Of a stretch of DNA of 35,886 nucleotides, positions 855 to 35,626 are shown one piece after another; position 1 is the stretch's first letter, and each line of letters starts with the position of its first letter. This DNA comes from an uncultured Gammaproteobacteria bacterium (GTDB lineage: Bacteria; Patescibacteriota; Microgenomatia; UBA1406; GWC2-37-13). Below the pieces are notes generated by a model that worked only from the letters and a program-made list of their open reading frames with translations, was not told the origin of the DNA and ran no database searches. The stretch is from positions 1-35,886 of the forward strand of contig CAYZAZ010000005.1 in assembly GCA_964476545.1 (NCBI GenBank), in the 5' to 3' direction. The position numbers and the translations under genes were made by a program.

Positions 855-1124
855 TCAAGAATTTTTAGTTAACCGTCCTAGATTGTAAATAGTACTAAAA
901 AAACCAAAAAAAATCAACAGTAATGTAAAAATATTTCTGGTATTAAATTGTTTATCCAGATATAAACCAACTGGAATAGCAATAATTAAAGGCGCCACAA
1001 TATAAAAACCCACATTTAATAAATAAGCCGGCAAAGGCAAAGATTTTTTTTTAATTTTTGAATTTTCTAATTTTAAATCTGTTGCCTTTAATTCAAAATC
1101 AGTCCCAATCTTATAATTTCCCAT
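855..1124 (-). CDS. AtpZ/AtpI-family small membrane protein (putative ATP synthase accessory protein)
   Basis: 89 aa with two predicted TM helices. The GLYLDKQFNT...FTLLLIFFGF pattern resembles the AtpZ/AtpI family. Positioned 7 nt upstream of atpB. Confidence 0.6.
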   Translation of the reverse strand: MGNYKIGTDFELKATDLKLENSKIKKKSLPLPAYLLNVGFYIVAPLIIAIPVGLYLDKQFNTRNIFTLLLIFFGFFSTIYNLGRLTKNS

Positions 1125-5834: not shown

Positions 5835-7248
5835 TATTTTCTAAAATTGTTGGTAATTTTTTATGCCAATCAGTTTCCTGCTGATATAAGTAGCCCATTT
5901 GTAATAGTTCGTTTTCTGCAAATCTTTTACCAATGATCTGCATTCCGACTGGTAATCCCTCGGCAAAGCCGGCAGGAATCGCTAAACTGGGTGCACCCAC
6001 TAAATTAATCGTCACGGTATACAAATCTTCTAAAATATTTTTTAGAGGATCATTTATTAATTCACCAATTTTGGCCGGTAAACTGGGGGAAACTGGCGCC
6101 AGCAAAACATCACACCCTTTCAGGGCGTTTTCATATTCTGCAATCAAAATTGTTCTTAATTTCTGAGCTTTTTTATAAAGTTCGTCAGCATATCCGGCCG
6201 ACAAGGCATAAGTACCCAACAATATTCTTCTTTTTGTTTCCGCAGAAAACAACTCTCTCTGTCCTCCATATCTTATTCCGTCATAGCGACTCAAATTCGA
6301 GCTCGTCTCACTGGGGGCAATCAAATAATATATAGAAACTCCATAAATAAAATGAGGTAAACTAACTTCTCTCACTTCCGCTCCTAATTTTTCAAAAACT
6401 TTGGTGGCTTCAATGATTGTTTCTTTAGCTTTGGGATCAAGACCCTTGCCAAAAAATTCTTTAGGCAAACCAATCACTTTGCCTTTGATTGACTGACCTA
6501 AAAATTGAGAATATTGATCGACCTTCTGATGAGAACTTGTCGAATCCAAATTATCTTTTCCAGCCATAATTTCGAGCAAATAACTCAAGTCTTCAACGGA
6601 TTTAGCCATGGGTCCGATTGTATCCAACGACGAAGCGTAAGCGATTGTTCCCAGTCTCGAAACCCGACCATAAGTAACTTTTAAACCAGAAATACTACAC
6701 ATGCTGGCTGGACTCCGAATAGATCCTCCCGTATCTTCGCCAATCGAAAAAGGAACCATGCGGGTGGAAATGGCAATGGCCGATCCACCAGATGATCCTC
6801 CAGGGATTCTTGACAAATCCCAAGGATTATGGGCTGGTTGATAATCGGTATTTTCAGTGGACCCACCATGACCCCAAGCATCCATATTATTTTTTCCAAT
6901 CAAGATTGATCCTGATTGAATAATTTTTTTAAAAACAGTGGCGCTATATTGGGGTAAATAATCATCAAGAATTTTATTACCGGCTGTCGTGCGAATATTT
7001 TCCGTGCAGTAAGCATCTTTGATTGAAAAAGGCAGGCCAGATACAATTGACGCACTTTCATCTCTTAGTTCATCATTTTTCTCTGCTTCTTTTAAAACAT
7101 CTTTCTTATCTCTAATTGTTATAAAACTATGAAGTTTGCTATCTAATTTTTCCACCTGAGCAAAAGATTCTTTTACTAAGTCCACAGAACTCACTTCCTT
7201 TTTTTTTAGCATTAGTGCCAACTCTTTGATTGATTTGTTAATTAGCAT
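5827..7248 (-). CDS. gatA: Asp/Glu-tRNA amidotransferase subunit A (amidase family)
   Basis: 473 aa with the amidase signature GGSSGGSA and flanking Ser/Gly-rich motif. Lies in gatC-gatA-gatB order. Confidence 0.95.
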   Translation of the reverse strand: MLINKSIKELALMLKKKEVSSVDLVKESFAQVEKLDSKLHSFITIRDKKDVLKEAEKNDELRDESASIVSGLPFSIKDAYCTENIRTTAGNKILDDYLPQYSATVFKKIIQSGSILIGKNNMDAWGHGGSTENTDYQPAHNPWDLSRIPGGSSGGSAIAISTRMVPFSIGEDTGGSIRSPASMCSISGLKVTYGRVSRLGTIAYASSLDTIGPMAKSVEDLSYLLEIMAGKDNLDSTSSHQKVDQYSQFLGQSIKGKVIGLPKEFFGKGLDPKAKETIIEATKVFEKLGAEVREVSLPHFIYGVSIYYLIAPSETSSNLSRYDGIRYGGQRELFSAETKRRILLGTYALSAGYADELYKKAQKLRTILIAEYENALKGCDVLLAPVSPSLPAKIGELINDPLKNILEDLYTVTINLVGAPSLAIPAGFAEGLPVGMQIIGKRFAENELLQMGYLYQQETDWHKKLPTILENNG

Positions 7249-7249
7249 A

Positions 7250-7549
7250 TTAATCGTCTTTTAGAATTTGCGGTACTAAAAAATAACCATTGTGATTACT
7301 TTTACTATTTTTTAAGACTTGCTCCTGGGTAAAAGAAGACGTCACTTCATCCGCCCGAAAAACATTTCCCTCATCCGAAACTCGCGTTGTTTCTTGAATA
7401 TCTTTCACATCCAGATTTTTTATTTCTTCCATATAGCCAATAACCGAGGAAAACTGACCCGTATATTTTTCCACTTCATCATCGGTTAAATTAATCTTCG
7501 CCAGCTTGGCCAAATTTTTTATCAAATCTTTGGAAATAGTATTAGTCAT
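7250..7549 (-). CDS. gatC: Asp/Glu-tRNA amidotransferase subunit C
   Basis: 99 aa, ends 1 nt before the gatA start. GatC-like N-terminus (LAKLAKINLTDDEVEKY). Shine-Dalgarno AAAGGTGA sits 4 nt upstream of the ATG on the minus strand. Confidence 0.85.
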   Translation of the reverse strand: MTNTISKDLIKNLAKLAKINLTDDEVEKYTGQFSSVIGYMEEIKNLDVKDIQETTRVSDEGNVFRADEVTSSFTQEQVLKNSKSNHNGYFLVPQILKDD

Positions 7550-7568
7550 AATTCACCTTTTAACTTGT

Positions 7569-7637
7569 AACACATAGCGCGTAACATATAACTCAGAACT
7601 TTACCCTCCGATTCGGAGGGTTTATAACTTAGAACTA
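7569..7637 (+). repeat. Intergenic repeat element, copy 1 (CACRTAGC heptamers, CCCTCCG hairpin, TAACTTAGAAC)
   Basis: AACACATAGCGCGTAACATATAACTC...CCCTCCGattCGGAGGG...TTTATAACTTAGAACTA aligns with 14539-14618. Confidence 0.7.
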
Positions 7638-7662
7638 ATCACTAATCACTAATCACTAATAA
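7635..7662. repeat. Tandem heptamer array CTAATCA x3 plus CTAATAA
   Basis: Read directly. In phase with the preceding TTTATAA CTTAGAA heptamers. Confidence 0.75.
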
Positions 7663-7705
7663 TTATTCTCCAAACACTTGTCCCATCAAGCCACCGAAAC
7701 TACTT

Positions 7706-9346
7706 TTATTCCCAAATCATTAAACTTTGATCAATTTTTACATCTATTATTACTGAAAGTTCTTCTTTTTGAGCTAATTTAAAAGCCTTTTCAAATTCTT
7801 CTTTTGAATCCAATTTATACCCTTTCATTTTATATGCATGGGCAATTTTTACATAATCTGGATTAATGAATGTATCAGCACAATCATGACCATAAATACT
7901 TTTATGATAATCAACAATTGACATGCAACCGCTATTATTTTCTATAACAAAGATTACTTTTATATCATAATTCATTGCTGTTCCTAATTCATTAAGAGAC
8001 ATTTGAAACCCACCGTCACCAACAAAACAAATAACTTCTTTTTTACTTGCCAAGGCTGCCCCAATCGCCGCTGGGACAGAATAACCCATTGGTCCATTTT
8101 TATCTGCTGTTAAAAATTGTTGAGTAAGTTTTGTTCTAAATTTTACGATTGCCATTGATTTTGCGTAACCTGTATCACATACAATAATCGAATTATCAGT
8201 TACCAAATCTTCAACAATATTATTTACATTTAATGGATTAACTCCATCACCGTCAGGATATCTTTTTTTTCTTGGATAATTAATATTTAATTGAACAACT
8301 TCTTTTATTAAAATTTTCGAAAAATCGTGTTCTTTCAACTCAAAGTTAGAAAAAAAACTTAAAACACTACCAATAGCAGATATATCAACTGGATAAACAC
8401 GACCTATCTCACTATAATCTGGATCAACCTGCGCTAATACTACATCACCAAAAATGCTTCTATCATACCAAGCCATTTCCCATTCTTGCATTCTATCTCC
8501 AAGGAATAAAATTAAATCTGATTTCTTCATGTATTCATAAACTTTCTGTGTTTTTCCCTCTTGTCTAATTACCCCCAAAAATAACTTATCATACTCATCA
8601 ATAAAGTTTTTTGCCAAAGGAGATACAGTGTAAGGAATTGCAAGTTTTTGTAATATCTGAGGAAGTTTCTTTTTAATATTCTGTTCATCGGCTCCCTCAC
8701 CAATTACCAACAATGGATGTTTAGCTTGATATAATTTTTCTGCAATTTTCACACTATCACTTTTACTACAACTTGGCGAATTCAAATTTTTATATTTACA
8801 AGGTTGTATTTTTTCATAATCAATTTCTACATTCCAGAAATCTGATGGTATTTCAATATAAACTGGACCTTTTCTTCCAGAATTAGCTAATCTAAATGCC
8901 TCTCTTACCATATTGGGCACTGCATCTGGACTTGGCGCAAGCATAGCTTGTTTGCAACAAGCTTTAAAAACTAATCTTTGTTCTATTGATTGCCCTCTCC
9001 CAGAACCATCTTGAACAGGATTTCTTCCAAAAGAACTAGTACTGACAGTCGCACCAATTGCAATAATAGGAACAGAATCCATAAGTGCAGTTGCAAGTCC
9101 GGTCACCATATTTGTTGCTCCAGGGCCAGCTGTCGCCAAAACTACCGCCGGACATTTTTTTACTCGCGCATATCCATCAGCCATATAAACCGCATTTCCT
9201 TCTTGTTTATTTAAAATTATTTTTATTTTCTCATTATTTACAGCCTCCCACAAATGCATTATATGACCACCAGTGTAACCAAAAACATGCTCTATTCCCT
9301 CTAATTTTAAAATGTCAGCAACTGCAGATTTTACATCAATTTTCAT
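7706..9346 (-). CDS. Thiamine-pyrophosphate-dependent enzyme, acetolactate-synthase-large-subunit-like
   Basis: 546 aa. N-terminal TPP pyrimidine-binding domain (GYTGGHIMHLWEA, GPGATNMVTGLATALMDSVPIIAIG) and C-terminal TPP motif GDGGFQMSLNELGT. No small subunit or other ilv genes nearby. Confidence 0.8.
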   Translation of the reverse strand: MKIDVKSAVADILKLEGIEHVFGYTGGHIMHLWEAVNNEKIKIILNKQEGNAVYMADGYARVKKCPAVVLATAGPGATNMVTGLATALMDSVPIIAIGATVSTSSFGRNPVQDGSGRGQSIEQRLVFKACCKQAMLAPSPDAVPNMVREAFRLANSGRKGPVYIEIPSDFWNVEIDYEKIQPCKYKNLNSPSCSKSDSVKIAEKLYQAKHPLLVIGEGADEQNIKKKLPQILQKLAIPYTVSPLAKNFIDEYDKLFLGVIRQEGKTQKVYEYMKKSDLILFLGDRMQEWEMAWYDRSIFGDVVLAQVDPDYSEIGRVYPVDISAIGSVLSFFSNFELKEHDFSKILIKEVVQLNINYPRKKRYPDGDGVNPLNVNNIVEDLVTDNSIIVCDTGYAKSMAIVKFRTKLTQQFLTADKNGPMGYSVPAAIGAALASKKEVICFVGDGGFQMSLNELGTAMNYDIKVIFVIENNSGCMSIVDYHKSIYGHDCADTFINPDYVKIAHAYKMKGYKLDSKEEFEKAFKLAQKEELSVIIDVKIDQSLMIWE

Positions 9347-9357
9347 TTTATTTTTTT

Positions 9358-9384
9358 AAAACTTTCAACACCTTGGGTTGAAAG
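9358..9384 (-). terminator. Rho-independent terminator after the NUDIX gene
   Basis: Minus strand: CTTTCAAC-ccaaggt-GTTGAAAG followed by TTTT. It lies only about 12 nt before the TPP-enzyme ATG. Confidence 0.5.
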
Positions 9385-9405
9385 GGGTGCTATAGCACTC
9401 TAAAC

Positions 9406-9849
9406 TTATAATTTTGAAAAAAACTTCCGATATTTTTTTAACGCTTTTAAATCTAATTTTGTAATTTCCGATAGTGGTTTTGGTAATTTGCTTAGCTTAA
9501 ACCAGCCAATTGCCAAACATTTTTCTGGTTCCAGTATTTTCGGTTCTTTGTTTCCTTTTACTTTACAAACGAAACAACTTGGTACCCAATGCTGTTTTTC
9601 TTTGGGCAACAAATGATTTTGGGCCGGCAACTGATGTAATAATACCAAATCAACACCATATTCTTCCAGCATTTCGCGCTTTATTGCTTTTTGTAATGTT
9701 TCCCCAAAATCGACCTTTCCTCCGGGAATTTCCCAACAACCTCTCTCATTTGTTACATTTTGACTTCTTTTAGATAAAAATAATTCGCGTTTTTGATTAA
9801 AAATCATCGCCCCCACTGAGATACCAATATAATCAATTCCTGTTTTCAT
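9406..9849 (-). CDS. NUDIX hydrolase
   Basis: 147 aa with Nudix box GGKVDFGETLQKAIKREMLEEYGV (GX5EX7REUXEEXGU). Confidence 0.85.
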   Translation of the reverse strand: MKTGIDYIGISVGAMIFNQKRELFLSKRSQNVTNERGCWEIPGGKVDFGETLQKAIKREMLEEYGVDLVLLHQLPAQNHLLPKEKQHWVPSCFVCKVKGNKEPKILEPEKCLAIGWFKLSKLPKPLSEITKLDLKALKKYRKFFSKL

Positions 9850-9857
9850 AATAGTTT

Positions 9858-9885
9858 ATCTTAAATCTCAAAACTTAAATGTCAA
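9858..9885 (-). promoter_or_regulatory. Promoter of the NUDIX gene (TTGACA-N16-TAAGAT), -10 box 8 nt from the ATG
   Basis: Minus-strand TTGACA is plus 9880-9885 and TAAGAT is plus 9858-9863. The ATG is at 9849. No SD. Confidence 0.55.
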
Positions 9886-9901
9886 AACCACATCTTAAAT
9901 C
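9858..9901. repeat. 44-nt heptamer-phased module, copy 2 (upstream of the NUDIX gene)
   Basis: ATCTTAA ATCTCAA AACTTAA ATGTCAA AACCACA TCTTAAA TC. 37 of 44 positions are identical to copy 1 by hand alignment. Confidence 0.65.
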
Positions 9902-9969
9902 TTTTTATCTCTGTTTTAAGATAAACAGTTTTTACATTTGGCTTTAACATTTAACATCTAACATTTGAG

Positions 9970-10788
9970 TTAAATCCGACTAATCATATTTGATCTTGCC
10001 TTATATTCCAAACTATCATCTAGTTTACTTAACTCTATCTTTTTTTTATATTTTATTTCCAGTGCTTTTTCAATCAGCCAATCGGCAATCTCCGGATTCT
10101 TTGGCAAAATCGGCCCGTGCAAATATGTCCCAATCGCATTTTTATATCTTATACCTTCGGTCCTATCCTCGCCATTATTCCCATATCCTTTTATAACACT
10201 AGCAAACGCTTGCGACTTATCTCCTAGATAAGTTCGTCCACCATGATTCTCAAAACCGACGAATTCAAATTTGTCATTGCGAAGCTGAGCGAAGTCGAAG
10301 CTGAAGCAATCCGATTGAGATTGCTTCGTCGTCCCATTATGATTTGGCTCCTCACAATAACATATAGGCTTAATCATCACATTCCCAATTAATCTTTTTT
10401 CTCCCACCTTTGAACTCTCTGTAAACAAGTCAAATAATCCTAAACCCTCTAATTTTTTTGATTCAGCCGTTAAATAATATTTTCCCATGAATTGATAAGC
10501 GCCACAAATAAATAAAGCCGGAATATTATTATTTATTAATTTTTTTATTTCTTCACCTTTTCCTGAAAATAAATCTTTATTCACAATCTCTTGTTGAGTG
10601 TCTTGCGCCCCGCCCATAAAAATTAAGTCAATATTTTGCAATTCATCAAGTTTAGATTGAACAGAAATCCTTTTTACTTCCACATCGATTCCCCGCCACT
10701 GGCATCTTTTTTTTAGAACAATCACATTGCCCCGGTCACCATACGTACTCATGAGATCAGGATAGAGCCAGGCTATATTCAATTTCAT
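9970..10788 (-). CDS. gatD: Lipid II isoglutaminyl synthase glutaminase subunit (CobQ-type GATase), carrying an in-frame palindromic insertion
   Basis: 272 aa. N-terminus LYPDLMSTYGDRGNV and VGFENHGGRTY are typical of GatD/CobQ-like amidotransferases. Lies 7 nt downstream of murT. There are about 25 extra residues between RLIGNVMI and VGFENH. Confidence 0.8.
   Translation of the reverse strand: MKLNIAWLYPDLMSTYGDRGNVIVLKKRCQWRGIDVEVKRISVQSKLDELQNIDLIFMGGAQDTQQEIVNKDLFSGKGEEIKKLINNNIPALFICGAYQFMGKYYLTAESKKLEGLGLFDLFTESSKVGEKRLIGNVMIKPICYCEEPNHNGTTKQSQSDCFSFDFAQLRNDKFEFVGFENHGGRTYLGDKSQAFASVIKGYGNNGEDRTEGIRYKNAIGTYLHGPILPKNPEIADWLIEKALEIKYKKKIELSKLDDSLEYKARSNMISRI
10273..10361. repeat. GTCATTGCGA-type palindromic element inside gatD, translated in frame
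   Basis: Termini GTCATTGCGAAG (10273-) and CTCACAATAAC (-10361). Perfect 9-bp core stem GAAGCAATC-cgattga-GATTGCTTC (10303-10327). Shares the 14-mer TTGAGATTGCTTCG with the gatB element. Confidence 0.75.
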
Positions 10789-12139: not shown

Positions 12140-13031
12140 ACATTGCCCTCAATATCTTGATTCTCTCCTCAATCGGTGGGTGAGTGCTAAATAAATTCAC
12201 CAACCAAGAAGATTTACTTTTCGTTTTAAATGGATTAGAAATAAATAGGTGAGCCGTTGATGAGCTAACATTTCTCATTGGTGGAGAAGTACTAATTTTT
12301 TCTAAGGCACGAGCTAAACCTTCAGGATATCTAGTAATCAAAGACCCATCTGCATCGGCTAAATATTCCCGCTTTCTCGAAATCGCCAATTGAATTAACG
12401 TTGCCACAAGTGGTCCGATAATCAAAGCCACAAAAAATAAAACAATCATCAAAGGATTTTTTCCTCGATCTTCATCATTATTACGCCTGCCACCCCACCA
12501 CATACTTCTCATAATCCAGTCAGAAGCAATTGCCAAAGTCCCCACAAGAACAGCGACCACTGAAGAAATTAAAATATCATAATTTTTTACATGGGAAAGT
12601 TCGTGAGCAATTACCCCTTCAAGCTCGGTGCGATCAAGTATTTCAAGTAGACCGGTTGTTACACAAACAACTGCGTGCTTTGGATCTCGACCAGTCGCAA
12701 AAGCGTTCGGAGATGGGTCATTAATTACGTAAAGTTTCGGCATTGGTATTCCCGATGCGATTGCTAAATTTTCAGTAACTGTATAAAAATCAAAGAATTG
12801 TTTTTTATTCGCCGATTTGGCTCCTGTTGTAAAAAGAACAATTTTATCTGAGTAAAAATAACTTCCGGCAGTTGAAAAAAGAGAAAAATTAAATCCTAGG
12901 ATTAAATACTCAGTCGGAGAAGAATAATATTGTCCAACTATGTAAAAGAAACCAGAAATCACAAAAATAAATAGGCCAAAAATTAAAAAAGTCTTCAATC
13001 GATTAGAAGATATTTGAGAATATATGGACAT
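12138..13031 (-). CDS. htpX: M48-family zinc metalloprotease HtpX
   Basis: 297 aa with N-terminal TM helices and the HEXXH motif HELSHVKNYD. Shows the conserved lemA-htpX adjacency. Confidence 0.9.
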   Translation of the reverse strand: MSIYSQISSNRLKTFLIFGLFIFVISGFFYIVGQYYSSPTEYLILGFNFSLFSTAGSYFYSDKIVLFTTGAKSANKKQFFDFYTVTENLAIASGIPMPKLYVINDPSPNAFATGRDPKHAVVCVTTGLLEILDRTELEGVIAHELSHVKNYDILISSVVAVLVGTLAIASDWIMRSMWWGGRRNNDEDRGKNPLMIVLFFVALIIGPLVATLIQLAISRKREYLADADGSLITRYPEGLARALEKISTSPPMRNVSSSTAHLFISNPFKTKSKSSWLVNLFSTHPPIEERIKILRAM

Positions 13032-24581: not shown

Positions 24582-27242
24582 GTGAGAAAAATCAAGATTC
24601 TAATCTTTATTTTTTTCTTGCTATTTATACCCGACAGAGTTTCTGCCTTTGATTCATTTACCCGAAATCAAAATAATCCCTTGCCAGTAGAGTATGTTTC
24701 ACCTTTTAACACCAATCAACAAGTTCATGTTTATTTTGAAGATAATATCTTTAAAGCAATATTCTCCACGAAACAAATTGGTCAAACAGCTCATTCATTA
24801 GTCTATGGTAATTCAAGTGACGGACTAAACTGGAAACAAGAAAAAATAATTCTAACCAGTCCAGAAGACCTCTCCAATCCAAGAGTTACTAGATTAAACG
24901 AAACTAGTATTAAAATATATTTTACTCGCTTGGATAATGATGGTCTCTATCGCCAATATAGTATAAATTGCGATAATAATTTCAACTGTTCAGATATAGT
25001 TTTAGTCCTCCAACCAAGTTATTATTGGGAAAATTATGGTAATTTTGCCGCTTTTCCATTTTCCCAAAATTCCACTAATTATTTGTTTTATGGTGCTTGG
25101 GGGCCGGGTGGATTTAGAATTAATTTAGCAACTCAAGTAAATAATACCTGGGAAAAATGTACTACCGCCACTCTTCCATCGGCAGATGGCCCTTTTGTCT
25201 TTGAAGAAAATGGAGTTACCTATCTATTTTTTCACAATTCAAATGACCCTCATGCTATTAATTATGTTCAAACTACTGAACCAATTTCCTGCACTACTCA
25301 CTGGTCTGATCGCCGACCTGTTTTATTTTCTCAAGAAAGTTATGATTTAAGACATCTTATTTTTCCCTCTATTGTTAAAAAAGATAATGTTCATTATCTC
25401 TATTATTCGGGATATGCCGTAGATAATATTTGGCGGCTAAATTTAGCTACCGATCATGAAATTGCCCAAAATAAAACACCCCTTATTATTCTACCGGGCT
25501 TCATGGGCTCTTGGAATAAACAGGCTATTCTTCATAATGAAACTATCAATCAAACAGATTGGATACTCAATCCGATTGTTCATGAGTATGATGGACTTAA
25601 ACAAACACTAAACAATATCGGATATGTTGAAAATTCAGATTACTATTTTTTTTATTACGACTGGCGTAAGGGACTAAATGGACTTGCCGATGATCTTAAT
25701 AATTTTATTACAACCAATAACCAATTACCTGTAACAAATATTCAAATAGTTGGTCATTCTCTTGGTGGCTTAGTTTCTCGAATATATTTTCAAAAACACA
25801 GTCCTACAAATATCTCAAAAATTATTACCCTTGGTTCACCTCATCAAGGAACTCCCCAAGCTTACACTGCGGTGGAAGCAGGTGAATTAAATACCGAAAA
25901 TAATTTGCTATGGCTTGCCCAAAAATTAATTCTCCAAATTAACAAAAATAGCCTCGTGACTGACAAACAACTAATTAGTGATAAATTTCCGATTGCCCGC
26001 GACCTCCTCCCTATCTATAATTTTCTAAAAAATAACAATGACCAGATAATAAACATATCCGATATGGTAGAAATGAATAATAATTTACTTTCGTATCAAC
26101 CCACCTTACCCACGACTAATACCGTTCTAACCACGATCGTGGGTGAGACGGTATCAACAATTTCAGGCTACAAAATCGGAGCAAGAACAATCTTTGATCA
26201 ACTACTCAATTACTATCCCGACGGCCGGCCAACAGAAAGCTTTTATGAAATCGGTGATGAAACAGTTATTTCCTCAAGTGCCAAAATTAATAGTAATCCC
26301 CAAATTTTAAACTTAAATCATGGAGAGTTAGTTTATAAAAAAGAAGGTATAAAAGCCATATTAGATACTTTATCAATTCCTTATCAAGAAAGTCAAATTG
26401 TTGAGGGAAGTCGCACCCAAATTTTTCCTTCGCTTATCTTTTTAGTATTTTCACCAGTTACTTTAAAAGTAAATTTTTTAAATAACACATATTTAGAAAA
26501 TAATGGAATTATCCATATTCCCAATCCTCAATCTGGCAGTTATGCACTTGAGGCGACTGGCAATACGCCTGGTCGCTATACTATTCTCATCGGTCAACTA
26601 ACAGAAAATAAAAATGTGTGGTCAAAAATTGAGGGAAAAATAAATAGCTTGCCTCAAGTTGATAGTTATTCATTTGAATTTAATTTAAACTCACCCCAAG
26701 AGATAGAAACATCCAGTGACATTGCAGGCCAATTTGACGAATTAATTATTTATTTAAGCGACATAAATCTCACCTTAAAAAAAGCTGACATAAATAAATC
26801 AATTACCAATCTCCAAAAAGCCAAAGAATATTTTCAACAAAAAAGTTATGGAAAATTAAAACCAGCTCTTCAACTTACTCAAAATCAAATTTTAATTACA
26901 ATAAATGGAATTAGTGGAGAAAATAAAGCCAAATTACTATCCGCGCTCGAAAAACTGGAAAAAATATATTCAATTTCTCTCCAAACCTACTCATTTGGAG
27001 TTTTCCCTCAAAGATTAAAAACTGATTTAACTAATCTCAAAAAAACAGTTCTTTCTCATCAACAATACTTGCTAACAAACAAAAATGCAGGAAAAAATGT
27101 TTTTCTCAACTCTCTCTTACTTTCTCAAATTGATTTAAAAATTAAAAAAGCAGAAAATTCCCTAAATGAAAAACTGTATAATTCCACCGAAGTCCTCCTC
27201 AAATCCGCAAGTGAATTATTAAAAAATGTAAGAAGGTTATAA
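24582..27242 (+). CDS. Secreted multidomain protein: beta-propeller-like N-domain, alpha/beta-hydrolase (lipase/LCAT/PGAP1-like) domain and a helical C-terminal region
   Basis: 886 aa, GTG start, signal peptide ending VSA/FD. The N-domain has repeated YxFY/YLFF/YLYYSG strands suggesting a GH43/GH32-like propeller. The lipase-type motifs are PLIILPGFMGSW, the nucleophile elbow GHSLGG and LGSPHQGT. Confidence 0.7.
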   Translation: MRKIKILIFIFFLLFIPDRVSAFDSFTRNQNNPLPVEYVSPFNTNQQVHVYFEDNIFKAIFSTKQIGQTAHSLVYGNSSDGLNWKQEKIILTSPEDLSNPRVTRLNETSIKIYFTRLDNDGLYRQYSINCDNNFNCSDIVLVLQPSYYWENYGNFAAFPFSQNSTNYLFYGAWGPGGFRINLATQVNNTWEKCTTATLPSADGPFVFEENGVTYLFFHNSNDPHAINYVQTTEPISCTTHWSDRRPVLFSQESYDLRHLIFPSIVKKDNVHYLYYSGYAVDNIWRLNLATDHEIAQNKTPLIILPGFMGSWNKQAILHNETINQTDWILNPIVHEYDGLKQTLNNIGYVENSDYYFFYYDWRKGLNGLADDLNNFITTNNQLPVTNIQIVGHSLGGLVSRIYFQKHSPTNISKIITLGSPHQGTPQAYTAVEAGELNTENNLLWLAQKLILQINKNSLVTDKQLISDKFPIARDLLPIYNFLKNNNDQIINISDMVEMNNNLLSYQPTLPTTNTVLTTIVGETVSTISGYKIGARTIFDQLLNYYPDGRPTESFYEIGDETVISSSAKINSNPQILNLNHGELVYKKEGIKAILDTLSIPYQESQIVEGSRTQIFPSLIFLVFSPVTLKVNFLNNTYLENNGIIHIPNPQSGSYALEATGNTPGRYTILIGQLTENKNVWSKIEGKINSLPQVDSYSFEFNLNSPQEIETSSDIAGQFDELIIYLSDINLTLKKADINKSITNLQKAKEYFQQKSYGKLKPALQLTQNQILITINGISGENKAKLLSALEKLEKIYSISLQTYSFGVFPQRLKTDLTNLKKTVLSHQQYLLTNKNAGKNVFLNSLLLSQIDLKIKKAENSLNEKLYNSTEVLLKSASELLKNVRRL

Positions 27243-27248
27243 GTTCAA

Positions 27249-28007
27249 TTATGCCGAAACAGGCAAATCAGTTTGTATAGTTACTGGAAAAATAAATGGA
27301 TTATCTACTTCAACTGGAGGATTAGACCCTGCACCACCAGTTAACTTATTCCAAATATCTTCGCTATTAAGCGCTGTCACTCGTGCATTAGCTAAAGAAA
27401 AACCAATCTTCCCAATCTTTCCACTTGTTATTTGTTGTGCTGAATCAAATTTAAATTCGAGACCAATATCATGACATATAGTTTCAAATAATTCACCACT
27501 TACTTCCTTCTCGTTTATATCTCTATCTGTACATTCTAAAGTAATTGCTTTTATATCTCCATTACTAAGTCTTGAAACTATAAACGTCGAGGAACTATTA
27601 TCACCTATAAGTTCATGTCGTTTTAAATCATCTAAATATTTTTTTTCCAAAATAATTTGAATCTCCTGTGTTTCTAACCAAGTATTTAAATCTTCAATTT
27701 GATTAGCTCGAGTAAAAACCATTAACTTTTCAACATCTTTACTTAAACCAGAAGATAATACCAAAGCTGAATGCATACCATCATCTGATAAAGCAATATC
27801 AACTTCATATTTTCCATTTGGATCTCTATATGATTGCCTTATTGATTGATTTTCGCCTGCTAATTCAACACTATTTAATGGACCCATCCAAAATTGATGC
27901 TGATGGTAGGGGCCTTGAAGCCTTTTATTTTGGGTAGAATCAATAAATTTTTTCCATTTTTCAAATTGAGGAAAATACTGTGATGGTCTATTATTTTCTA
28001 CTGACAT
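27249..28007 (-). CDS. Hypothetical protein, paralogue A of a tandem pair
   Basis: 252 aa with no signal peptide or TM segment. Shares N-terminal (PQFEKWKKF vs PQFEELKRF) and C-terminal (DIGL.F.F...G.IGKI.F.LAN...IWN.LTG...NPFIFPV) blocks with the adjacent ORF. Confidence 0.6.
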   Translation of the reverse strand: MSVENNRPSQYFPQFEKWKKFIDSTQNKRLQGPYHQHQFWMGPLNSVELAGENQSIRQSYRDPNGKYEVDIALSDDGMHSALVLSSGLSKDVEKLMVFTRANQIEDLNTWLETQEIQIILEKKYLDDLKRHELIGDNSSSTFIVSRLSNGDIKAITLECTDRDINEKEVSGELFETICHDIGLEFKFDSAQQITSGKIGKIGFSLANARVTALNSEDIWNKLTGGAGSNPPVEVDNPFIFPVTIQTDLPVSA

Positions 28008-28045: not shown

Positions 28046-28705
28046 TTAGTAATTATCTATCTCCACACTTACAGGAAAAATAAAAGGATTGCCCTGTCCT
28101 TTTCCTGTCAAAGAATTCCAAATATTTTCTTTATCAAGCACAGTCTCAGCGACATTAGCCAGATTAAATCTTATTTTTCCAATTTGACCAACTATATTAT
28201 TATCCATTTGTCCAAAACCAAAGGACAATCCAATATCTTCACATATTTTATCAAGTGCTTCGCTACTTAATTCATCACTTTGAGGTAAACTTATTTCAAT
28301 TTTTTGGAAAGGCACCCAATCTTTTTTGTTTAAAGGTCGGTTAGCTTCACTCAATATATGGATATGATCAACAATTCCATTAATATAAATTACCAAATCA
28401 CTAAATATATGGTGATCACTTAAGCCTGTTTTAATAATATATCTACCAGCAAAATCACTATATTCTTGAGTAATTGATTCCGGTCTATATTTATGACCAA
28501 GATGAGCATAATTTACCTTCGTATCAATAAATCTAGGATTTGTATAACCAAATCCCGTATATATACCATCGTCAAAGGAATATTTTGGTAATGCATGCAC
28601 AAATCTTTTTAATTCTTCAAATTGAGGTAATAATTCCGTAGGGTTTAATCTACCAAAATTGTGCGGAAGCATTAATGTCTTTAAAATTGATGTTTCTGCT
28701 GACAT
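28046..28705 (-). CDS. Hypothetical protein, paralogue B of a tandem pair
   Basis: 219 aa, collinear similarity to 27249-28007. Has clustered His residues (HLGH, DHH, DHIH) and its own canonical promoter immediately upstream. Confidence 0.6.
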   Translation of the reverse strand: MSAETSILKTLMLPHNFGRLNPTELLPQFEELKRFVHALPKYSFDDGIYTGFGYTNPRFIDTKVNYAHLGHKYRPESITQEYSDFAGRYIIKTGLSDHHIFSDLVIYINGIVDHIHILSEANRPLNKKDWVPFQKIEISLPQSDELSSEALDKICEDIGLSFGFGQMDNNIVGQIGKIRFNLANVAETVLDKENIWNSLTGKGQGNPFIFPVSVEIDNY

Positions 28706-30373: not shown

Positions 30374-30402
30374 TTGACAAATTAATTTTATATATTTATG
30401 AT
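30374..30402 (+). promoter_or_regulatory. Sigma70-type promoter of the TasA-like gene (TTGACA-N17-TATGAT)
   Basis: TTGACA at 30374-30379, a 17-nt spacer and TATGAT at 30397-30402. This gives a leader of about 55 nt ending in a strong SD (30444-30454). Confidence 0.6.
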
Positions 30403-30461: not shown

Positions 30462-31019
30462 ATGAAAAGAATTATTTTATCTTTAGTATTAGTCGTAGGA
30501 ACAATATTTGCCAGCATTGCTTATACTAGAGCAGCTTGGACAGATACTGTAACTGTTACTAATAACATAATTACAACAGGAACAGTTGATCTAGAAGTAT
30601 CAACAGACAGTGGTACAACTTGGGATTCCACAACTGCTTCCTCAACGATGACTCTATCAAATTTAGCACCAGGTGCAGCAGCAACATCAGCCTATTCATT
30701 CTCACTCAGAAATTCTGGAACAGTAGGCCCAATGACGCTTAGCGCTCAAGTCACTTCAACAAACATCACACCAACTGCTGGAGTAGATAAATCAATGTTA
30801 TATTTGACTATCTATGATACAGATACATTGGCAGATGTCTCAGCTGAAGTTACTATGTTAGCTTGGGAATCTGGATTACAAGCATTGACAACAACGCTTC
30901 CATCCGGAGGAACACCAGCTAATTTTGGTATAAGAGCTCGTTTAGATACAACAGCAGACAATACATGGCAAGGACAAACCGTGACATTTACTTTAAGTGT
31001 TACTGGAACCCAACCATAA
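30462..31019 (+). CDS. TasA/camelysin-family secreted protein with SipW-type signal peptide (candidate fibre subunit)
   Basis: 185 aa. The N-terminus MKRIILSLVLVVGTIFASIAYTRAAWTDTVTVTNNIITTGTVDLEV parallels the camelysin/TasA pattern ...GGGTFAYFSD...NNTFAAGTLDL. The internal NLAPG...SFSLRNSGTV and C-terminal NTWQGQTVTFTLSVTGTQ parallel DLKPGD...LQNRGS and FQGDSL..W.F.A.Q. Strong SD GAGGGGGTGA. Confidence 0.8.
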   Translation: MKRIILSLVLVVGTIFASIAYTRAAWTDTVTVTNNIITTGTVDLEVSTDSGTTWDSTTASSTMTLSNLAPGAAATSAYSFSLRNSGTVGPMTLSAQVTSTNITPTAGVDKSMLYLTIYDTDTLADVSAEVTMLAWESGLQALTTTLPSGGTPANFGIRARLDTTADNTWQGQTVTFTLSVTGTQP

Positions 31020-31033
31020 TTTGTCAATTCTTT

Positions 31034-31059
31034 GGAAGCCTGAAACAATTCAGGCTTCC
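31034..31059 (+). terminator. Perfect 11-bp hairpin between the TasA-like gene and the SipW-fusion gene (terminator or attenuator candidate)
   Basis: GGAAGCCTGAA-acaa-TTCAGGCTTCC. The sequence downstream is T-rich but not an uninterrupted T-run. Confidence 0.45.
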
Positions 31060-31088
31060 TCTAGAATTTAAAAAATTTTTCATTATTA

Positions 31089-34000
31089 ATGAGTAAAGTA
31101 TTAAAAATCATTTGGCGAATTCTTCCTACAATTATTTTAGTGCTTACTAGCGTTTCAATTTTGACTATTTTACCGCTTCGAAATTCTCCTTTTAAGGCAT
31201 TTATCGTAACTACAGGAAGTATGCGACCAAAAATTCCAGAAGGTTCAATCGTTTTTGTTGATAGAAAACCTTCAAAACCATTAAAAACCAATGACATTAT
31301 TACTTTTAAAAAACCAAATAATCCAATTGACAATGTAACTCACCGTATTGTTAAAATAATTTTAAAGTCAGGAAAACCAGTTATTATCACCAAAGGAGAC
31401 GCAAATAATTCAAATGACGTTTGGGATCTAAAAAAAGATGCTATTTGGGGAAAGGTTGTTTTTTCTCTTCCGTATATCGGCTACTTTGCTAATTTTGCAA
31501 AAACTAAAATTGGTGTAATTATTTTAGTGCTTATTCCTCTCGGATTTATTGCAATTAGTGAACTGTTTGTAATATTTAAAGAAGTAGAGAAATTTAAAGA
31601 AAGAAGAAGAAAGAAAAAGCAAAAAAATTCTTCTACTGAAATTTTATCCAAAACACTACCTCTTCTTCTTATTTTTTTAAATATAACGCTATTAAATAGT
31701 TTTGGAGTTTTTACAGATAGAATTACTAGTACATTAGCTGTTGTTACTACAAAATGCTGGACTAACCCATTACAACCAACATCGTTATTACCAAACAATA
31801 ATACAGTTAGTAACAGTACTGATATTAACTTTAGTTGGCCTGCGACCACTTCAAACTGCCCAATTGCCACTCTCGAATATAATTTTCAAATTTTTAGTGA
31901 CTCATCTTTAACAACTCTTGTTACTGAGTCCGGATTTTTATCTAATCTATCTTTCAACTATACATCTATTCCCGAGGGAGAGTATTGGTGGAGAGTTCAA
32001 GCTAAAGATCAATATAATAATACATCTAATAGTACTTCCCATCATTTAATTATAGACAGAACCAGTCCAACAGTTCCCGGACAGATTGATTGGACGACTG
32101 AAAATCCACCAAGCGGATCTGATTACATTAGTGGATCGGACTTTGATAATTTTAAAACTTGTAATGGAGCGTTAAATTATTCTCCAATGACTAACCTTTG
32201 GTCGCCCTCAACTGATACAAATAGTTTTACTTATGAAAGAGAAGTCTATTCTCCAATTGGCAATCTTATATATTTTCATCTTGGAATGACAACTAATTAT
32301 GAAAATGGTGGTGGAGCAGTTGATGGAACCACCTATTGGGTGCGAATAAGAGCCAAAGATATTGCCGGAAATTATAGTGCTTGGACAAGCAAATGCGCAA
32401 TTACTTACGACACAACTTCCCCTTCAATCCCCTCTCTTTCCGTTACCGGCTCATTTACTAAGGCAGTTGAGGAAAAAATTAATAATAGTGATTTTGAAAC
32501 TGGCGATCTGACTAATTGGAGAAGCGCTGGCGACGTACAAGTTATGACAACCGATAATGGTAGTACTCCGGACTTTACCGTCACTCCTTATGATGGTGTA
32601 TACATGACCCGAATTGGCCAAGCGAGTTCTTATGTTTGGGAAAATAGATTAATGGGTTCATTTGACTCTGGCGCCAAAAGTCTTTCCATGCGCTACAACT
32701 TTTTTAGCCGTGATGCCGGCAGTCAAGACAATCCAGGATTTTTCATCCGTTTGAATGGTCAAGAAATATTTTCCTTAAATACCAGTAGCGTCAATCCAGG
32801 CGCAATCAATGATGGCAATGCAAGGTCTACTGATTGGCAAGAATATAAATACGATTTAAGTAATGTTACTGATTCCAAAATTAATTTAGCCATGTATGCA
32901 GGCAATACAAGTGATACTTTAAATAATTCCTGGGTTTATGTTGATAAAATCACCACTTACTTTGTCTCTGCCCCGGCCCATGCAATTTATGATTTATCAG
33001 GTAGTGATAATCTTGGTGGTTCCGGTATTAGTCATTTTGAATATGATATCGATGGCTCAGGTTGGCTAACAGGTAATTCTTTTGGTAATGTTGCTCCATT
33101 TTCAAATGGAGGCACTCATACTTTACTTTACCGCTCAATTGACAACGCCGGCAATTCGAGTGCTATTTCAACAGTCAGAATTATTACCGATGACATTGCA
33201 CCAAGCACTATTTCTGATCTAGCCGTTACCTCAACGAGTAATACTGCTAATTTAACTTGGACTGCTCCCGGAAATGATGGTACTTCCAATCGTGCGAGTT
33301 CTTATGACATAAGATATTCCACCTCAAATATTACCGATGACACAACTTTTAATTCGGCCACTAAAGTAGAAAAGGTTCCTGTTCCCAAAGAACCAGGCGA
33401 AACTGAAAATTTAGAAATTATTGGCCTTAATCCATCAACTCTTTATTACTTTGCAGTTAAAACTAGTGATGAAGCACCCAATACATCTTTACTTTCCAAT
33501 GTTCCTTCAGACACAACCAGTGCCGGATCAACAATTAACGCCGGTGATCTTATCATCAACGAATTAATGTGGATGGGTTCCAGTCAAGGTGCAGATGACC
33601 AATGGATTGAACTACGCAATATGACCGATCATGCCATTGATTTAACCAATGTAACCTTCACCAAATATGATGGTACAACAGATATTTTAATGTTAACAAT
33701 TCCATCAGGGAACATCCCAGCCCATGGATATTTCTTAATTGCCAACTTTGCCAATACTGCTTCTAAATTAAAAGACAGTCTCACCGTCGATTTAGTTACC
33801 ACTGATGTCGATTTAAGTAATGCTAATTTATCAATAAAACTTTTTGATTCTACCTTAAATATGATCGATGAAGCTTGGGATCAGTCAGCTCCAATTGAAG
33901 GAATTTATGACGCGACTCCTGGTAGTGAAAAATATTATTCAATGGAGAGAACTTCTGTTCCCGGAAATGGAACCGATCCTCTAAATTGGTATACTTGTAT

Positions 34001-34319
34001 TGATGAAGCTTCTAAATCAGATTTCTTTGATAATACGGCTGATGAAAGAGGCACGCCAGGCGCAACTAACCGTTCAGAAAACGAACCCTATGTCGAAAAT
34101 CCAACTCAATCACCCACTCAATCACCCATGCCAACAATTGAGATTACACCTGTTCCAGAATTTACAGAAACACCAGTTCAGCCCACCCCAACAATCTTTT
34201 CAACCCCCGGGGTTGAAAGTGAAGTTACGCCAACTATTGAACCAACGGTCGAGCCCACAAATCAACCAGTTAGTGAACCAACTAACGAACCAATTACTGA
34301 TCCAACACCCACAATATGA
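31089..34319 (+). CDS. SipW/archaeal-type (S26B) signal peptidase I fused to a large extracellular adhesin-like region (Ig/FN3-like, CBM-like, lamin-tail domain, Pro/Thr-rich tail)
   Basis: 1076 aa. Residues 1-165 read TM, then VTTGSMRPKIPEGSIVFV...ITF...VTHRIV...TKGDANNSND, then TM, matching the SipW/ER-type peptidase boxes. Residues 166-210 form an internal signal-peptide-like segment ending FGVFTD. Downstream are WRVQAKD../WVRIRAKDIAGN Ig-like modules, NSDFETGDLTNW (CBM4/9-like), FN3 (TWTAPGNDG...YDIRYS), lamin-tail motif INELMWMGS..DQWIELRN and a PT-rich tail. Confidence 0.8.
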   Translation: MSKVLKIIWRILPTIILVLTSVSILTILPLRNSPFKAFIVTTGSMRPKIPEGSIVFVDRKPSKPLKTNDIITFKKPNNPIDNVTHRIVKIILKSGKPVIITKGDANNSNDVWDLKKDAIWGKVVFSLPYIGYFANFAKTKIGVIILVLIPLGFIAISELFVIFKEVEKFKERRRKKKQKNSSTEILSKTLPLLLIFLNITLLNSFGVFTDRITSTLAVVTTKCWTNPLQPTSLLPNNNTVSNSTDINFSWPATTSNCPIATLEYNFQIFSDSSLTTLVTESGFLSNLSFNYTSIPEGEYWWRVQAKDQYNNTSNSTSHHLIIDRTSPTVPGQIDWTTENPPSGSDYISGSDFDNFKTCNGALNYSPMTNLWSPSTDTNSFTYEREVYSPIGNLIYFHLGMTTNYENGGGAVDGTTYWVRIRAKDIAGNYSAWTSKCAITYDTTSPSIPSLSVTGSFTKAVEEKINNSDFETGDLTNWRSAGDVQVMTTDNGSTPDFTVTPYDGVYMTRIGQASSYVWENRLMGSFDSGAKSLSMRYNFFSRDAGSQDNPGFFIRLNGQEIFSLNTSSVNPGAINDGNARSTDWQEYKYDLSNVTDSKINLAMYAGNTSDTLNNSWVYVDKITTYFVSAPAHAIYDLSGSDNLGGSGISHFEYDIDGSGWLTGNSFGNVAPFSNGGTHTLLYRSIDNAGNSSAISTVRIITDDIAPSTISDLAVTSTSNTANLTWTAPGNDGTSNRASSYDIRYSTSNITDDTTFNSATKVEKVPVPKEPGETENLEIIGLNPSTLYYFAVKTSDEAPNTSLLSNVPSDTTSAGSTINAGDLIINELMWMGSSQGADDQWIELRNMTDHAIDLTNVTFTKYDGTTDILMLTIPSGNIPAHGYFLIANFANTASKLKDSLTVDLVTTDVDLSNANLSIKLFDSTLNMIDEAWDQSAPIEGIYDATPGSEKYYSMERTSVPGNGTDPLNWYTCIDEASKSDFFDNTADERGTPGATNRSENEPYVENPTQSPTQSPMPTIEITPVPEFTETPVQPTPTIFSTPGVESEVTPTIEPTVEPTNQPVSEPTNEPITDPTPTI

Positions 34320-35626
34320 AAAATTTAACTAAATATCTAATTAATTTTACAATTATTTTTTATTCATTATTCTTTATTAATTTATCTTTTACATTTGCCG
34401 CTGATTTTAATTTAGACTGTACCGGTTCAGGATGTAATAAAACAGGTATTGAACCTCTCTTTAATAATACGACCGATGGCGTCTGGTACCCAGGCCGAAC
34501 TCTTACAAAATCAATTAATTTGAAAAACTCTTCCGCTGATTCTAAAGAAATGGATATTAAACCAACAAGAACATCCACTTCAAATATTTTAGAAGATGTT
34601 ATGCAGATTAGTATTGTTACAAATCCAGGTGGCTTAGTAATTTGGGCTGGAAGCTTGAGTGATTTTTATAATCAAACGAAAATAAATATGGGAACATTTT
34701 CCTCGGGAGTAAATCAAGATTATAACTTTAGTGCCACTATGAACTCATCTGCCGACAATAGCTATCAAAATTTAGAGTCAGTTTTTGATTTGACTCTTGG
34801 TTTTTGGGAAGAATCACCCACGCCTACTCCAACAGATGCTGGTGGAGGCGGTGGCGGAGGAGGAACAAGTGACGGATCAGTTTCTGGCGCCTCAGCACCA
34901 GTTTGTAATGACACTGCACCAGCCAGCGCCCCAAATATTTTATTTGCAACAGGTGGAACCAATAGTGTCACTTTAACTTGGAGTGAAGCATCTGCTCCAG
35001 TTTCTTATTATTTAGTGGCTTATGGCGCTTCTCCAAGTAATAATACATATGGTAATCCCAATGTCGGAGGAAATGGCACAACAAGCTACACTGTCTCTGG
35101 CTTATCAGGTGGCACTAACTATTGTTTCATTGTTCGCGCAGGGAATGGTTGTAAGCCAGGTCCTTTTTCAGGTCAAGTTTGTGCAACTCCTGGAGGAATT
35201 TTTATTCCTGCTGGACCAGCCGCTGGCTTTGCCGAAGGCGTCCTCGGAGAAGCTACTCAATCGGCGGAATTAAGCTCCACCCCATCAGCCGGAATTCTTG
35301 GCGCAACTCAAAATAAAACTTGTAAAGATTGTCTTTGGTGGCAGATACTTCTTGGAGAGTTTATTGTTCTTTTAGCTTTTTATTTTATATTAGTAAAAAA
35401 ACTACACAAAAAAGTAAAATACACTGCTTATTTTGGAATTTTTATTCCAATTTTAACCTATATTATATTTCTTTGGTTAAATAGAAATTGCTTTGGTGGC
35501 TTTAAATTTACCTTTATTATTCCTTCAATTAATTTTTTCTGTAAATATTTTCTTATCTTAGCGACAATTCTTTATACAGCGGTCACACTTTATTGGAGAC
35601 ATAAAAAAACAGAAGTAGTTAAATAA
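34316..35626 (+). CDS. Membrane-anchored protein: N-terminal signal/anchor, TasA/camelysin-like domain, Gly/Pro-Thr linker, FN3 domain and three C-terminal TM helices
   Basis: 436 aa. Its start overlaps the upstream stop (ATGA). VWYPGRTLTKSINLKNSS and ...NSYQNLESVFDLTLGF parallel the TasA-family PGD...KN.GS and C-terminal FQG...F motifs. Also has a G8 linker, an FN3-like SVTLTWSEASAPVSYYLVAYG...YCFIVRAGN, and hydrophobic helices after residue ~340. Confidence 0.65.
   Translation: MKNLTKYLINFTIIFYSLFFINLSFTFAADFNLDCTGSGCNKTGIEPLFNNTTDGVWYPGRTLTKSINLKNSSADSKEMDIKPTRTSTSNILEDVMQISIVTNPGGLVIWAGSLSDFYNQTKINMGTFSSGVNQDYNFSATMNSSADNSYQNLESVFDLTLGFWEESPTPTPTDAGGGGGGGGTSDGSVSGASAPVCNDTAPASAPNILFATGGTNSVTLTWSEASAPVSYYLVAYGASPSNNTYGNPNVGGNGTTSYTVSGLSGGTNYCFIVRAGNGCKPGPFSGQVCATPGGIFIPAGPAAGFAEGVLGEATQSAELSSTPSAGILGATQNKTCKDCLWWQILLGEFIVLLAFYFILVKKLHKKVKYTAYFGIFIPILTYIIFLWLNRNCFGGFKFTFIIPSINFFCKYFLILATILYTAVTLYWRHKKTEVVK

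Follow-up and report, generated by a model that had tools for sequence, protein, structure and literature searches.

A SipW-type signal peptidase joined to a large passenger through an internal signal-peptide-like segment in a TasA-type operon

Introduction

Type I signal peptidases are normally separate from their substrates. In Bacillus subtilis, the peptidase SipW processes TasA and TapA, and the Phe at P2' makes TasA a poor substrate of LepB (PMC10269814). The first eleven residues of TasA after the SipW cut (residues 28-38, with F29 at P2') form the donor strand by which the fibre is built (PMC9674648). The N-terminus of TapA resembles this strand and nucleates fibres (PMC9674648, PMC10151520). 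The stop codon of tapA overlaps the start codon of sipW, and both products are of low abundance (PMC10151520). Here we describe a related locus in a stretch of 35,886 nucleotides (nt) of contig CAYZAZ010000005.1, termed the window in the following, in which a single gene encodes a SipW-type peptidase, an internal segment homologous to signal peptides and a large passenger.

The locus shares with tapA-sipW-tasA of B. subtilis the presence of a dedicated Ser-His peptidase of the endoplasmic reticulum (ER)/archaeal type beside a TasA/camelysin-like subunit and a minor accessory protein, as well as sites of the type A/x-F-x-D (the slash marks the cut here and below) with a donor strand, here a predicted one, just after the cut (PMC9674648, PMC10269814). 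In contrast to B. subtilis, enzyme and accessory protein are one polypeptide in the window, and the signal peptide is internal and would stay on the enzyme. The gene order is also different, with the subunit followed by the enzyme joined to the accessory protein, and the host belongs to the candidate phyla radiation (CPR). The passenger, with 870 amino acids (aa) and modules similar to carbohydrate-binding modules (CBM), Ig, fibronectin type III (FN3) and lamin-tail domains (LTD), shows no detectable homology to TapA.

Another described system is found in the bundling pili of Pyrobaculum, where the TasA-like pilin AbpA is accompanied by AbpB, a large multi-domain TapA-like protein that was proposed to donate the first strand and to serve as adhesin (PMC9245690). 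In the same study TasA homologues were already reported in Patescibacteria (PMC9245690). Unlike the window, the AbpA/AbpB locus encodes no dedicated peptidase and no fusion. SipA/LepA of Streptococcus pyogenes is likewise a signal-peptidase fold dedicated to one surface fibre (PMC4049620; fold match 4N31). It is, however, without catalytic residues and not fused to a pilus protein.

Internal signal sequences re-initiate translocation in the polyproteins of flaviviruses, pestiviruses and hepaciviruses, where the cut by signal peptidase frees the downstream ectodomains. In these eukaryotic ER systems, however, the peptidase is a host enzyme outside the polyprotein. Self-cleavage in vitro is known for Escherichia coli LepB and B. 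subtilis SipS, which accept their own chain as substrate. Unlike the arrangement described here, it is a side reaction that degrades the enzyme at a chance site, with no conserved signal peptide and passenger. A full-text literature search of limited coverage did not turn up any fusion of a signal peptidase to a substrate via an internal signal peptide. This agrees with an earlier note on this DNA, which knew of no such fusion for type I signal peptidases.

Results and Discussion

The gene at 31089..34319 is probably a natural fusion of the sipW of a TasA-type operon with an adjacent gene for a TapA-like passenger; the enzyme would cut its own junction and the passenger would prime or cap a fibre. 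Shown here are the architecture of the protein, its intact catalytic site, the homology of the junction to N-terminal signal peptides, the conservation of the site in the family and the operon context. The features of the gene are listed below.

31089..34319, plus strand: fused gene, 1076 aa; SipW-type peptidase, internal signal peptide and passenger
31119..31175, plus strand: transmembrane segment TM1 (residues 11-29), from hydrophobicity; preceded by K3, K6 and R10 on the predicted cytoplasmic side
31176..31517, plus strand: predicted extracytoplasmic catalytic domain (residues 30-143), from TIGR02228; Ser44 at 31218-31220, His85 at 31341-31343, Asp104 and Asp110
31518..31574, plus strand: TM2 (residues 144-162), from hydrophobicity; the usual C-terminal anchor of a stand-alone SipW
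31575..31655, plus strand: predicted cytoplasmic basic loop, n-region (residues 163-189); holds an A7 run at 31621-31627, and the initiator Met of split passengers aligns here
31656..31706, plus strand: h- and c-region (residues 190-206, LPLLLIFLNITLLNSFG); predicted cut after Gly206, between 31706 and 31707
31707..31760, plus strand: N-terminus predicted for the freed passenger (V207-W224, VFTDRITSTLAVVTTKCW); donor-strand-like motif
31707..34316, plus strand: passenger, 870 aa, predicted extracytoplasmic, from domain scans and AlphaFold

The earlier note had described a peptidase module of TM1, catalytic domain and TM2, with Ser44 in GSM, His85 in THRIV and a GDANN motif. All of these elements are present, GDANN at residues 103-107, and the coordinates given for the junction are exact (E165 at 31581-31583; F205-D210, FGVFTD, at 31701-31718). 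Residues 3-154 match TIGR02228 (archaeal-type signal peptidase I) with 93.9 bits at a cutoff of 51.85, and Pfam Peptidase_S26 is reached with 25.6 bits at a cutoff of 22.9. With 97.5 bits the protein stays below the cutoff of 190 of NF046067, the equivalog model of Bacillus SipW, and is a member of the same subfamily and no equivalog. A Ser-His (plus Asp) catalytic set is found instead of the bacterial Ser-Lys dyad, with Asp104 and Asp110 within GDANNSND. S44, H85, D104 and D110 are invariant in an alignment of eleven proteins and in 127 of 127 fused relatives.

A Kyte-Doolittle scan of the whole protein revealed three hydrophobic segments, at residues 11-29, 144-162 and 190-208; the second has a weaker shoulder that begins at 130. 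For residues 1-230, an AlphaFold model calculated from an 11-sequence alignment, with a pLDDT (predicted local distance difference test) of 72.6, consists of a helix at 2-27, a beta-rich domain, a long helix at 140-179 and a helix at 186-199. Best Foldseek matches of the peptidase model are human SEC11C and SEC11A (7P2Q_A and 7P2P_A, E 3e-6, TM target 0.58-0.60). By profile, catalytic residues, topology and fold, the module is a signal peptidase I of the ER/archaeal type (SipW type; MEROPS S26B), and its activity is predicted.

The third segment shows the layout of basic n-region and hydrophobic h-region that had been claimed for it. Eleven K/R and four D/E lie between TM2 and the hydrophobic core (10 K/R versus 4 D/E in the loop 165-195), the core comprises about 13 residues, and small residues occupy positions -3 (S204) and -1 (G206). 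From the start of the core to -1 there are 17 residues. An aromatic residue at P2' is followed by [ST]-D, in the form of F208-T209-D210. The hydrophobic segments and the K/R-rich loop after TM2 also uphold the topology that had been proposed from the positive-inside rule. The N-terminal position expected by TIGR04088 is not seen here, as about 165 residues with a complete peptidase precede the segment.

A search with the full protein gave both fused homologues (P0002, P0003, P0004, P0007, P0011, P0015-P0018, P0024 and P0025) and passenger-only homologues (P0005, P0006, P0008-P0010 and P0012-P0014). Loci L004, L005, L007 and L006 have the gene order TasA-like subunit, sipW (165-180 aa), passenger and FN3 protein, with sipW and passenger as separate genes. 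The window has the same order, except that these two are joined. In L004, L005 and L007 the ATG of the passenger lies 17-20 nt upstream of the sipW stop codon in another frame; in L006 a gap of 5 nt separates the genes. The split SipW proteins terminate 15-45 residues beyond the helix equivalent to TM2, and the passenger-only proteins have an ordinary signal peptide at their N-terminus and then the same motif (e.g. MKQKLKALLVSLLILLAFTPVTSA/YFSDDGTSTTNAFSARCW in P0013).

When split and fused proteins are aligned together, the initiator Met of the split passengers lies in the basic stretch of the fused ones. The two forms also align column for column in the h-region, at the small-x-small site and in F-[ST]-D...W. 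Because of the split-operon context and this alignment, we conclude that the internal segment of the window is the homologue of the N-terminal signal peptide of a sipW-adjacent gene. The comparison of orthologues proposed in the earlier note thus yields a mix of fused and split genes, with the motif in both kinds. As no in-frame ATG, GTG or TTG occurs within residues 151-215, the passenger can be made only as part of the fusion.

In a neighbour-joining tree of the passenger region, calculated without bootstrap, fused and split forms interleave; the window lies closest to a split relative (P0006), and fused forms occupy the deepest branches. Fused and split genes thus appear to have been converted into each other repeatedly, for which a small change at the overlapping stop and start would suffice. 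Separately, the A7 run of the window (31621-31627) lies within the lysine-rich loop of the fusion, and an A8 run in L004 (about 6917-6924) lies exactly at the sipW/passenger overlap; such runs could be hotspots for fusion and fission or for slippage.

Loci L001-L003 were rejected as a further split example, since the peptidase of that operon is of the LepB type (Ser-Lys) and not SipW. The genes there, at 7302-7946, 8001-10472 and 12171-12743, encode a TasA-like subunit, a passenger-only orthologue and the LepB-type peptidase. The site of this passenger (P0009) reads ..TVSD/YFDE, with no Ala at -1.

To estimate how widespread the fusion is, 1.84 billion cluster representatives were searched with profile A1, which covers the N-terminal ~230 residues of eleven fused proteins; 38,422 matched at E up to 0.001. 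Among the best 150 of these, 122 span the junction to the end of the profile and continue for 0-974 residues; this number is a lower bound on distinct fused clusters at 50% identity and not a frequency, since the ranking favours such proteins. A word-indexed search returned mainly stand-alone SipW proteins of 166-200 aa from many CPR phyla, about one tenth of the hits being long. The fusion is a sizeable minority form among SipW proteins, as judged from these searches. In databases the fused relatives are named 'signal peptidase I' or 'signal peptidase' only.

The residues around the site were counted in 127 fused sequences (126 at some columns):

Position -1: Ala 113, Ser 11, Gly 2, Thr 1; A/S/G/T in 127 of 127
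Position -3: Thr, Ala, Ser, Val or Ile in 124 of 126
Position +2: Phe in 102 of 127
Position +3: Ser or Thr in 91 of 126
Position +4: Asp in 74 of 126, Ser in 28
Downstream of +4: G-N-T-[IF]-S-T-G-x-W
n-region: median of 7 K/R
Start of the hydrophobic core to -1: median of 21 residues, range 14-26

By these sequence features the family junction has the layout of a cleaved signal peptide rather than that of a plain anchor, and the junction of the window sits in columns that are strongly conserved across the fused family.

The relation to SipW-type signal peptides was investigated with profile hidden Markov models (HMMs). A leave-one-out junction HMM from the 126 other fused proteins was searched against six-frame open reading frame fragments of the window. 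The window junction is the top match, at the expected place (residues ~170-226, 30.3 bits, E 3e-9), and second comes the upstream TasA-like subunit with its N-terminal signal peptide (28.8 bits, E 9.5e-9). Since the junction HMM also recognises this N-terminus, the junction of the fused family belongs to the same type of sequence as N-terminal signal peptides of the SipW class, and the copy in the window is by sequence a divergent member. TIGR04088 (cutoff 19 bits) is passed by the internal junction of the fused protein P0075 with 21.3 bits; the junctions of P0076 and P0077 reach 18.2 and 17.6 bits, the split passenger P0013 18.0 bits and the TasA-like protein of L001 30.1 bits. The TasA-like protein of the window gives no match to this model. 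A motif-only HMM (-4 to W, 123 relatives) matches the TasA-like subunit (YTRAAWTDTVTVTNNIITTG) with 19.5 bits. With a seven-sequence HMM of split-passenger signal peptides, one input of which was mis-trimmed, the window junction is matched weakly (E 0.075).

A fusion of this layout also occurs outside the low-GC CPR genomes. In L030, a high-GC contig, the region 1322-3932 holds a TasA-like gene (..TATSA/AFTGTTESTGDFTAA..) followed by a SipW-passenger fusion with a third hydrophobic segment, a ..PATAAA/FAATTDAPSSFTMTSTW junction (AAA/FAATTD..STW) and a LamG-type passenger (Laminin_G_3). From its sequence this case looks independent. Proteins P0039-P0050, consisting of SipW and about 450 further aa, were rejected as fusions, since they have a charged, predicted cytoplasmic extension and neither a third hydrophobic segment nor a cleavage motif. 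They form a separate SipW-like family of 620-720 aa with a long, highly charged and apparently cytoplasmic C-terminal extension. This recalls the C-terminus of B. subtilis SipW, for which a second, non-peptidase role was reported.

The passengers vary widely across the family, with LTD, FN3 and Ig domains, Pro/Thr tails and a recurrent Cys-containing C-terminal domain. In the window the passenger is composed as follows.

Residues ~246-440, plus strand: Ig-like modules; Big_3_3 with 28.1 bits at a cutoff of 27, and this only in a separate scan of residues 205-444
32421-33008, plus strand: CBM-like jelly roll (residues 445-640), from AlphaFold and fold match; below the Pfam cutoff
Residues 635-698, plus strand: OmpL47-type barrel; passes the NCBIfam cutoff
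33210-33470, plus strand: fn3 (residues 708-794); passes the Pfam cutoff
33537-33872, plus strand: LTD (residues 817-928); passes the Pfam cutoff
Residues ~1030-1076, plus strand: Pro/Thr-rich tail

The domains proposed in the earlier note are essentially right. The fn3 and LTD domains stand by profile and the CBM fold by structure; the CBM (15.6 bits at a Pfam cutoff of 25.9 for the CBM4/9-like domain) remains below the profile cutoffs, as do the PT repeat and most Ig models in the full-length scan. The AlphaFold model of residues 445-640 has a pLDDT of 85.4, and its best folds are CBM4, CBM27, CBM22 and CBM61 (E ~5e-5, TM 0.4-0.59). A sequence search of the PDB with the passenger gave no match at E up to 1. 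In a different observation, a C-terminal domain of ~95 aa (..LSYELSYD....G..G...........GTCS.G.C.Y......) ends many passengers, among them P0002 (~1040-1132) and P0007-P0010. This Cys-containing domain is absent from the window protein, whose end is the Pro/Thr-rich tail.

Compared by eye, the N-terminus of the passenger, VFTDRITSTLAVVTT, resembles that of the mature upstream subunit, AWTDTVTVTNNIITT (likewise written AWTDTVTVTNNIITTGTV). The same pairing is seen in the operon of P0004 (L009), with AFSDTTSVTNSQVAT in the passenger and AWTDTVTVTSNEVQT in the subunit. Because of this resemblance and the donor-strand findings for TasA and TapA, we propose the passenger as an initiator or tip protein similar to TapA and AbpB.

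In the proposed mechanism TM1 would insert with the N-terminus inside, which places the catalytic domain outside, and TM2 would bring the chain back into the cytoplasm. The basic loop would be kept inside by the positive-inside rule, and the short third hydrophobic segment would serve as an internal signal peptide for export of the 870-aa passenger. The SipW module of the same or a neighbouring molecule would then cut after S-F-G206. This would leave the former signal peptide attached to the enzyme, where it forms a third membrane helix, and free the passenger with the new N-terminus VFTDRITS... By mimicking the donor strand of the upstream TasA-like subunit, this N-terminus could plug into a subunit, and the passenger could prime or cap the fibre in the role that TapA has for TasA. 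The CBM-like, Ig, FN3 and lamin-tail domains would form the adhesive end. Joining the two parts would fix enzyme and initiator at 1:1 and put the initiator where the subunits get processed; the fusion may be the end point of the coupling of tapA and sipW, known from their low-abundance products and overlapping genes. Export of the passenger by the third segment, the cut after Gly206 and the donor-strand role are the predicted parts of this scheme. A more specific form, which we consider possible and put forward tentatively, is a self-processing polyprotein that is cut in cis during or just after export, that keeps its signal peptide as a permanent third helix and frees one initiator per enzyme, beside the active site at which TasA-like subunits emerge, so that each enzyme would nucleate one fibre; switching between fused and split forms by 1 nt would tune the coupling.

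Several points weigh against the proposed self-cleavage and the role of the passenger. TIGR04088 gives no match to the window junction even at E 10, and the motif-only HMM misses the motif of the window itself. The assignment of FGVFTD to the SipW-class motif, made in the earlier note, holds for the aromatic P2' and the [ST]-D, but not at the level of these two models, and the short motif of the window is by itself not significant. The site is atypical with its Gly at -1 (2 of 127 in the family), and L-A-V replaces the G-N-T core. Throughout the family, cleavage at the internal site is predicted from the sequence. In the AlphaFold model of residues 1-230 the site is undocked from the active site and residues 197-230 have a pLDDT below 50, which leaves the model silent on cis versus trans. 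After the cut, the tethered signal peptide could compete with other substrates near the active site. Finally, the TapA-like role is suggested by operon position and an 18-residue resemblance, with no detectable homology to TapA; the TapA model TIGR04087 (cutoff 80) has no match in the window, and the best score seen was 15.6 bits for the junction of P0076.

The rare Gly at -1 and the degenerate motif would also agree with an uncleaved signal anchor. In that case the third segment would export and tether the passenger, the 1076-aa protein would stay intact and its peptidase would process the TasA-like subunit only. The predicted nature of the cleavage and the modelled helix 186-199, to which nothing is docked, are compatible with such an anchor as well, and a tethered passenger would attach the fibre to the membrane. 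An anchor, however, needs neither a -1 position confined to A, S, G or T, as it is in all 127 sequences, nor a small or aliphatic residue at -3. The core of ~13 residues is short, the homologous segment is an N-terminal signal peptide in the split orthologues, and a separate membrane-anchored protein is already encoded downstream. We therefore regard the anchor as unlikely. Still less probable is a cut at this site by another enzyme, such as a housekeeping LepB-type peptidase, although in L001-L003 the operon of the passenger-only orthologue has a LepB-type peptidase and lacks a nearby SipW. LepB accepts an aromatic P2' poorly, which is the reason why TasA needs SipW (PMC10269814). No peptidase could be nearer than the fused enzyme, whose catalytic residues are invariant, and the site of the L001 passenger (..VSD/YFDE) is not the same.

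Slippage of RNA polymerase or ribosome on the A7 run at 31621-31627 could in principle yield a stand-alone SipW of 183 aa beside the fusion, because one added A leads to a stop after QKKFFY at residue 183, and the split orthologue L004 has its A8 run exactly at the junction. A-runs are, however, expected where lysines are encoded in a genome of 33% GC, the split junctions of L005, L007 and L006 have no long runs, conservation gives no support, and no passenger would result. Such slippage is accordingly very improbable. An artefact of assembly or sequencing, in which a lost stop or a frameshift joined two genes, would fit the tiny changes at the overlapping stop and start that separate split from fused forms. 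It is effectively refuted: the fusion recurs in many independent assemblies (NCBI, JGI, ENA, Logan) at 37-54% identity, which also answers the concern about an artefact raised in the earlier note, and it is found in 122 of the best 150 cluster representatives.

The proposed self-cleaving fusion is embedded in an operon with the following further elements.

30374..30402, plus strand: promoter-like site TTGACA-17-TATGAT ahead of the TasA-like gene; an 11/12 consensus match only
30462..31019, plus strand: TasA/camelysin-like subunit, 185 aa, presumed major fibre protein; signal peptide 1-24, predicted site ..YTRA/AWTDTVTVTNNIITTG
31034..31059, plus strand: RNA hairpin between subunit and fusion genes, 11-bp GC-rich stem of GGAAGCCUGAA and UUCAGGCUUCC
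34316..35626, plus strand: downstream protein, 436 aa; its start overlaps the stop codon of the fusion by 4 nt, and it is present in all related operons

The surroundings are ordinary chromosomal DNA with 33% GC, and dnaE, gatA, gatB and murT are among the genes in the window. The source is a bacterium of the Microgenomates group within the CPR, and homologue search and a single-protein locus scan gave Candidatus Gottesmanbacteria and Roizmanbacteria as the closest named relatives. The 185-aa subunit scores 16.8 bits with Pfam Peptidase_M73 (PF12389), below the cutoff of 22.5. The proteins at the same position in L004, L005 and L007 carry PF12389, and the subunit is 30% identical to that of L005 over 86 aa. 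The 71-nt stretch 31020-31090 folds with a minimum free energy of -22.4 kcal/mol (z -6.0 versus shuffles). A terminator scan between the subunit and fusion genes found no canonical terminator; the hairpin is not called since no T-run follows directly. As an attenuator or stabiliser, it may keep the subunit high relative to the minor protein. Promoter-like site and hairpin together would fit high expression of the subunit and low expression of the enzyme-initiator, which is speculative.

The 436-aa protein has a signal peptide with a different site, ..FTFA/ADFNLDC, and the consensus A/AD[FL]x[LV]xC. A beta-rich N-domain (WYPG..tK..N.S, no Pfam match) is followed by a Gly run, an fn3 domain and a C-terminal membrane anchor. 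In L005, L007 and L008 this anchor consists of a single helix; in the window, L001, L004 and L006 it has several. This protein may be the cell-proximal partner or membrane-proximal base of the fibre.

Further genes were noted near the operon. Upstream, at 24582-27242 (plus strand), an 886-aa secreted alpha/beta hydrolase of the LCAT/PGAP1 type is encoded, and its synteny is kept in L004 and L005. Its signal peptide ends ..PDRVSA/FDSFTRNQNN and is the top match of a small signal-peptide HMM. Two tandem paralogues at 27249-28007 and 28046-28705 (both minus strand; 29% identity, E 2e-26, no Pfam match) share the conserved C-terminal motif IGKIxFxLAN...IWNxLTG...NPFIFPV. In L006 a sortase gene (7296-7874, minus strand) lies directly downstream of the split operon and points to a second route of surface attachment nearby.

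Conclusion

If the reading as a self-processing protein cut in cis is true, the family would be the first case in nature of a type I signal peptidase fused to its substrate. The conserved and widespread fusion would provide a built-in, genetically defined pair of enzyme and substrate for peptidases of the SipW/SEC11 type, whose substrate rules are poorly known, and could be used to study recognition, cleavage in cis versus trans and the fate of a signal peptide that is unable to leave the enzyme. For annotation it means that hundreds of proteins labelled only 'signal peptidase I' consist of two parts. CPR bacteria live attached to other cells, and little is known about their attachment machinery beyond type IV pili. 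The family described here suggests that CPR/Patescibacteria commonly carry on their surface donor-strand fibres of the TasA type, with large adhesins at the tips.

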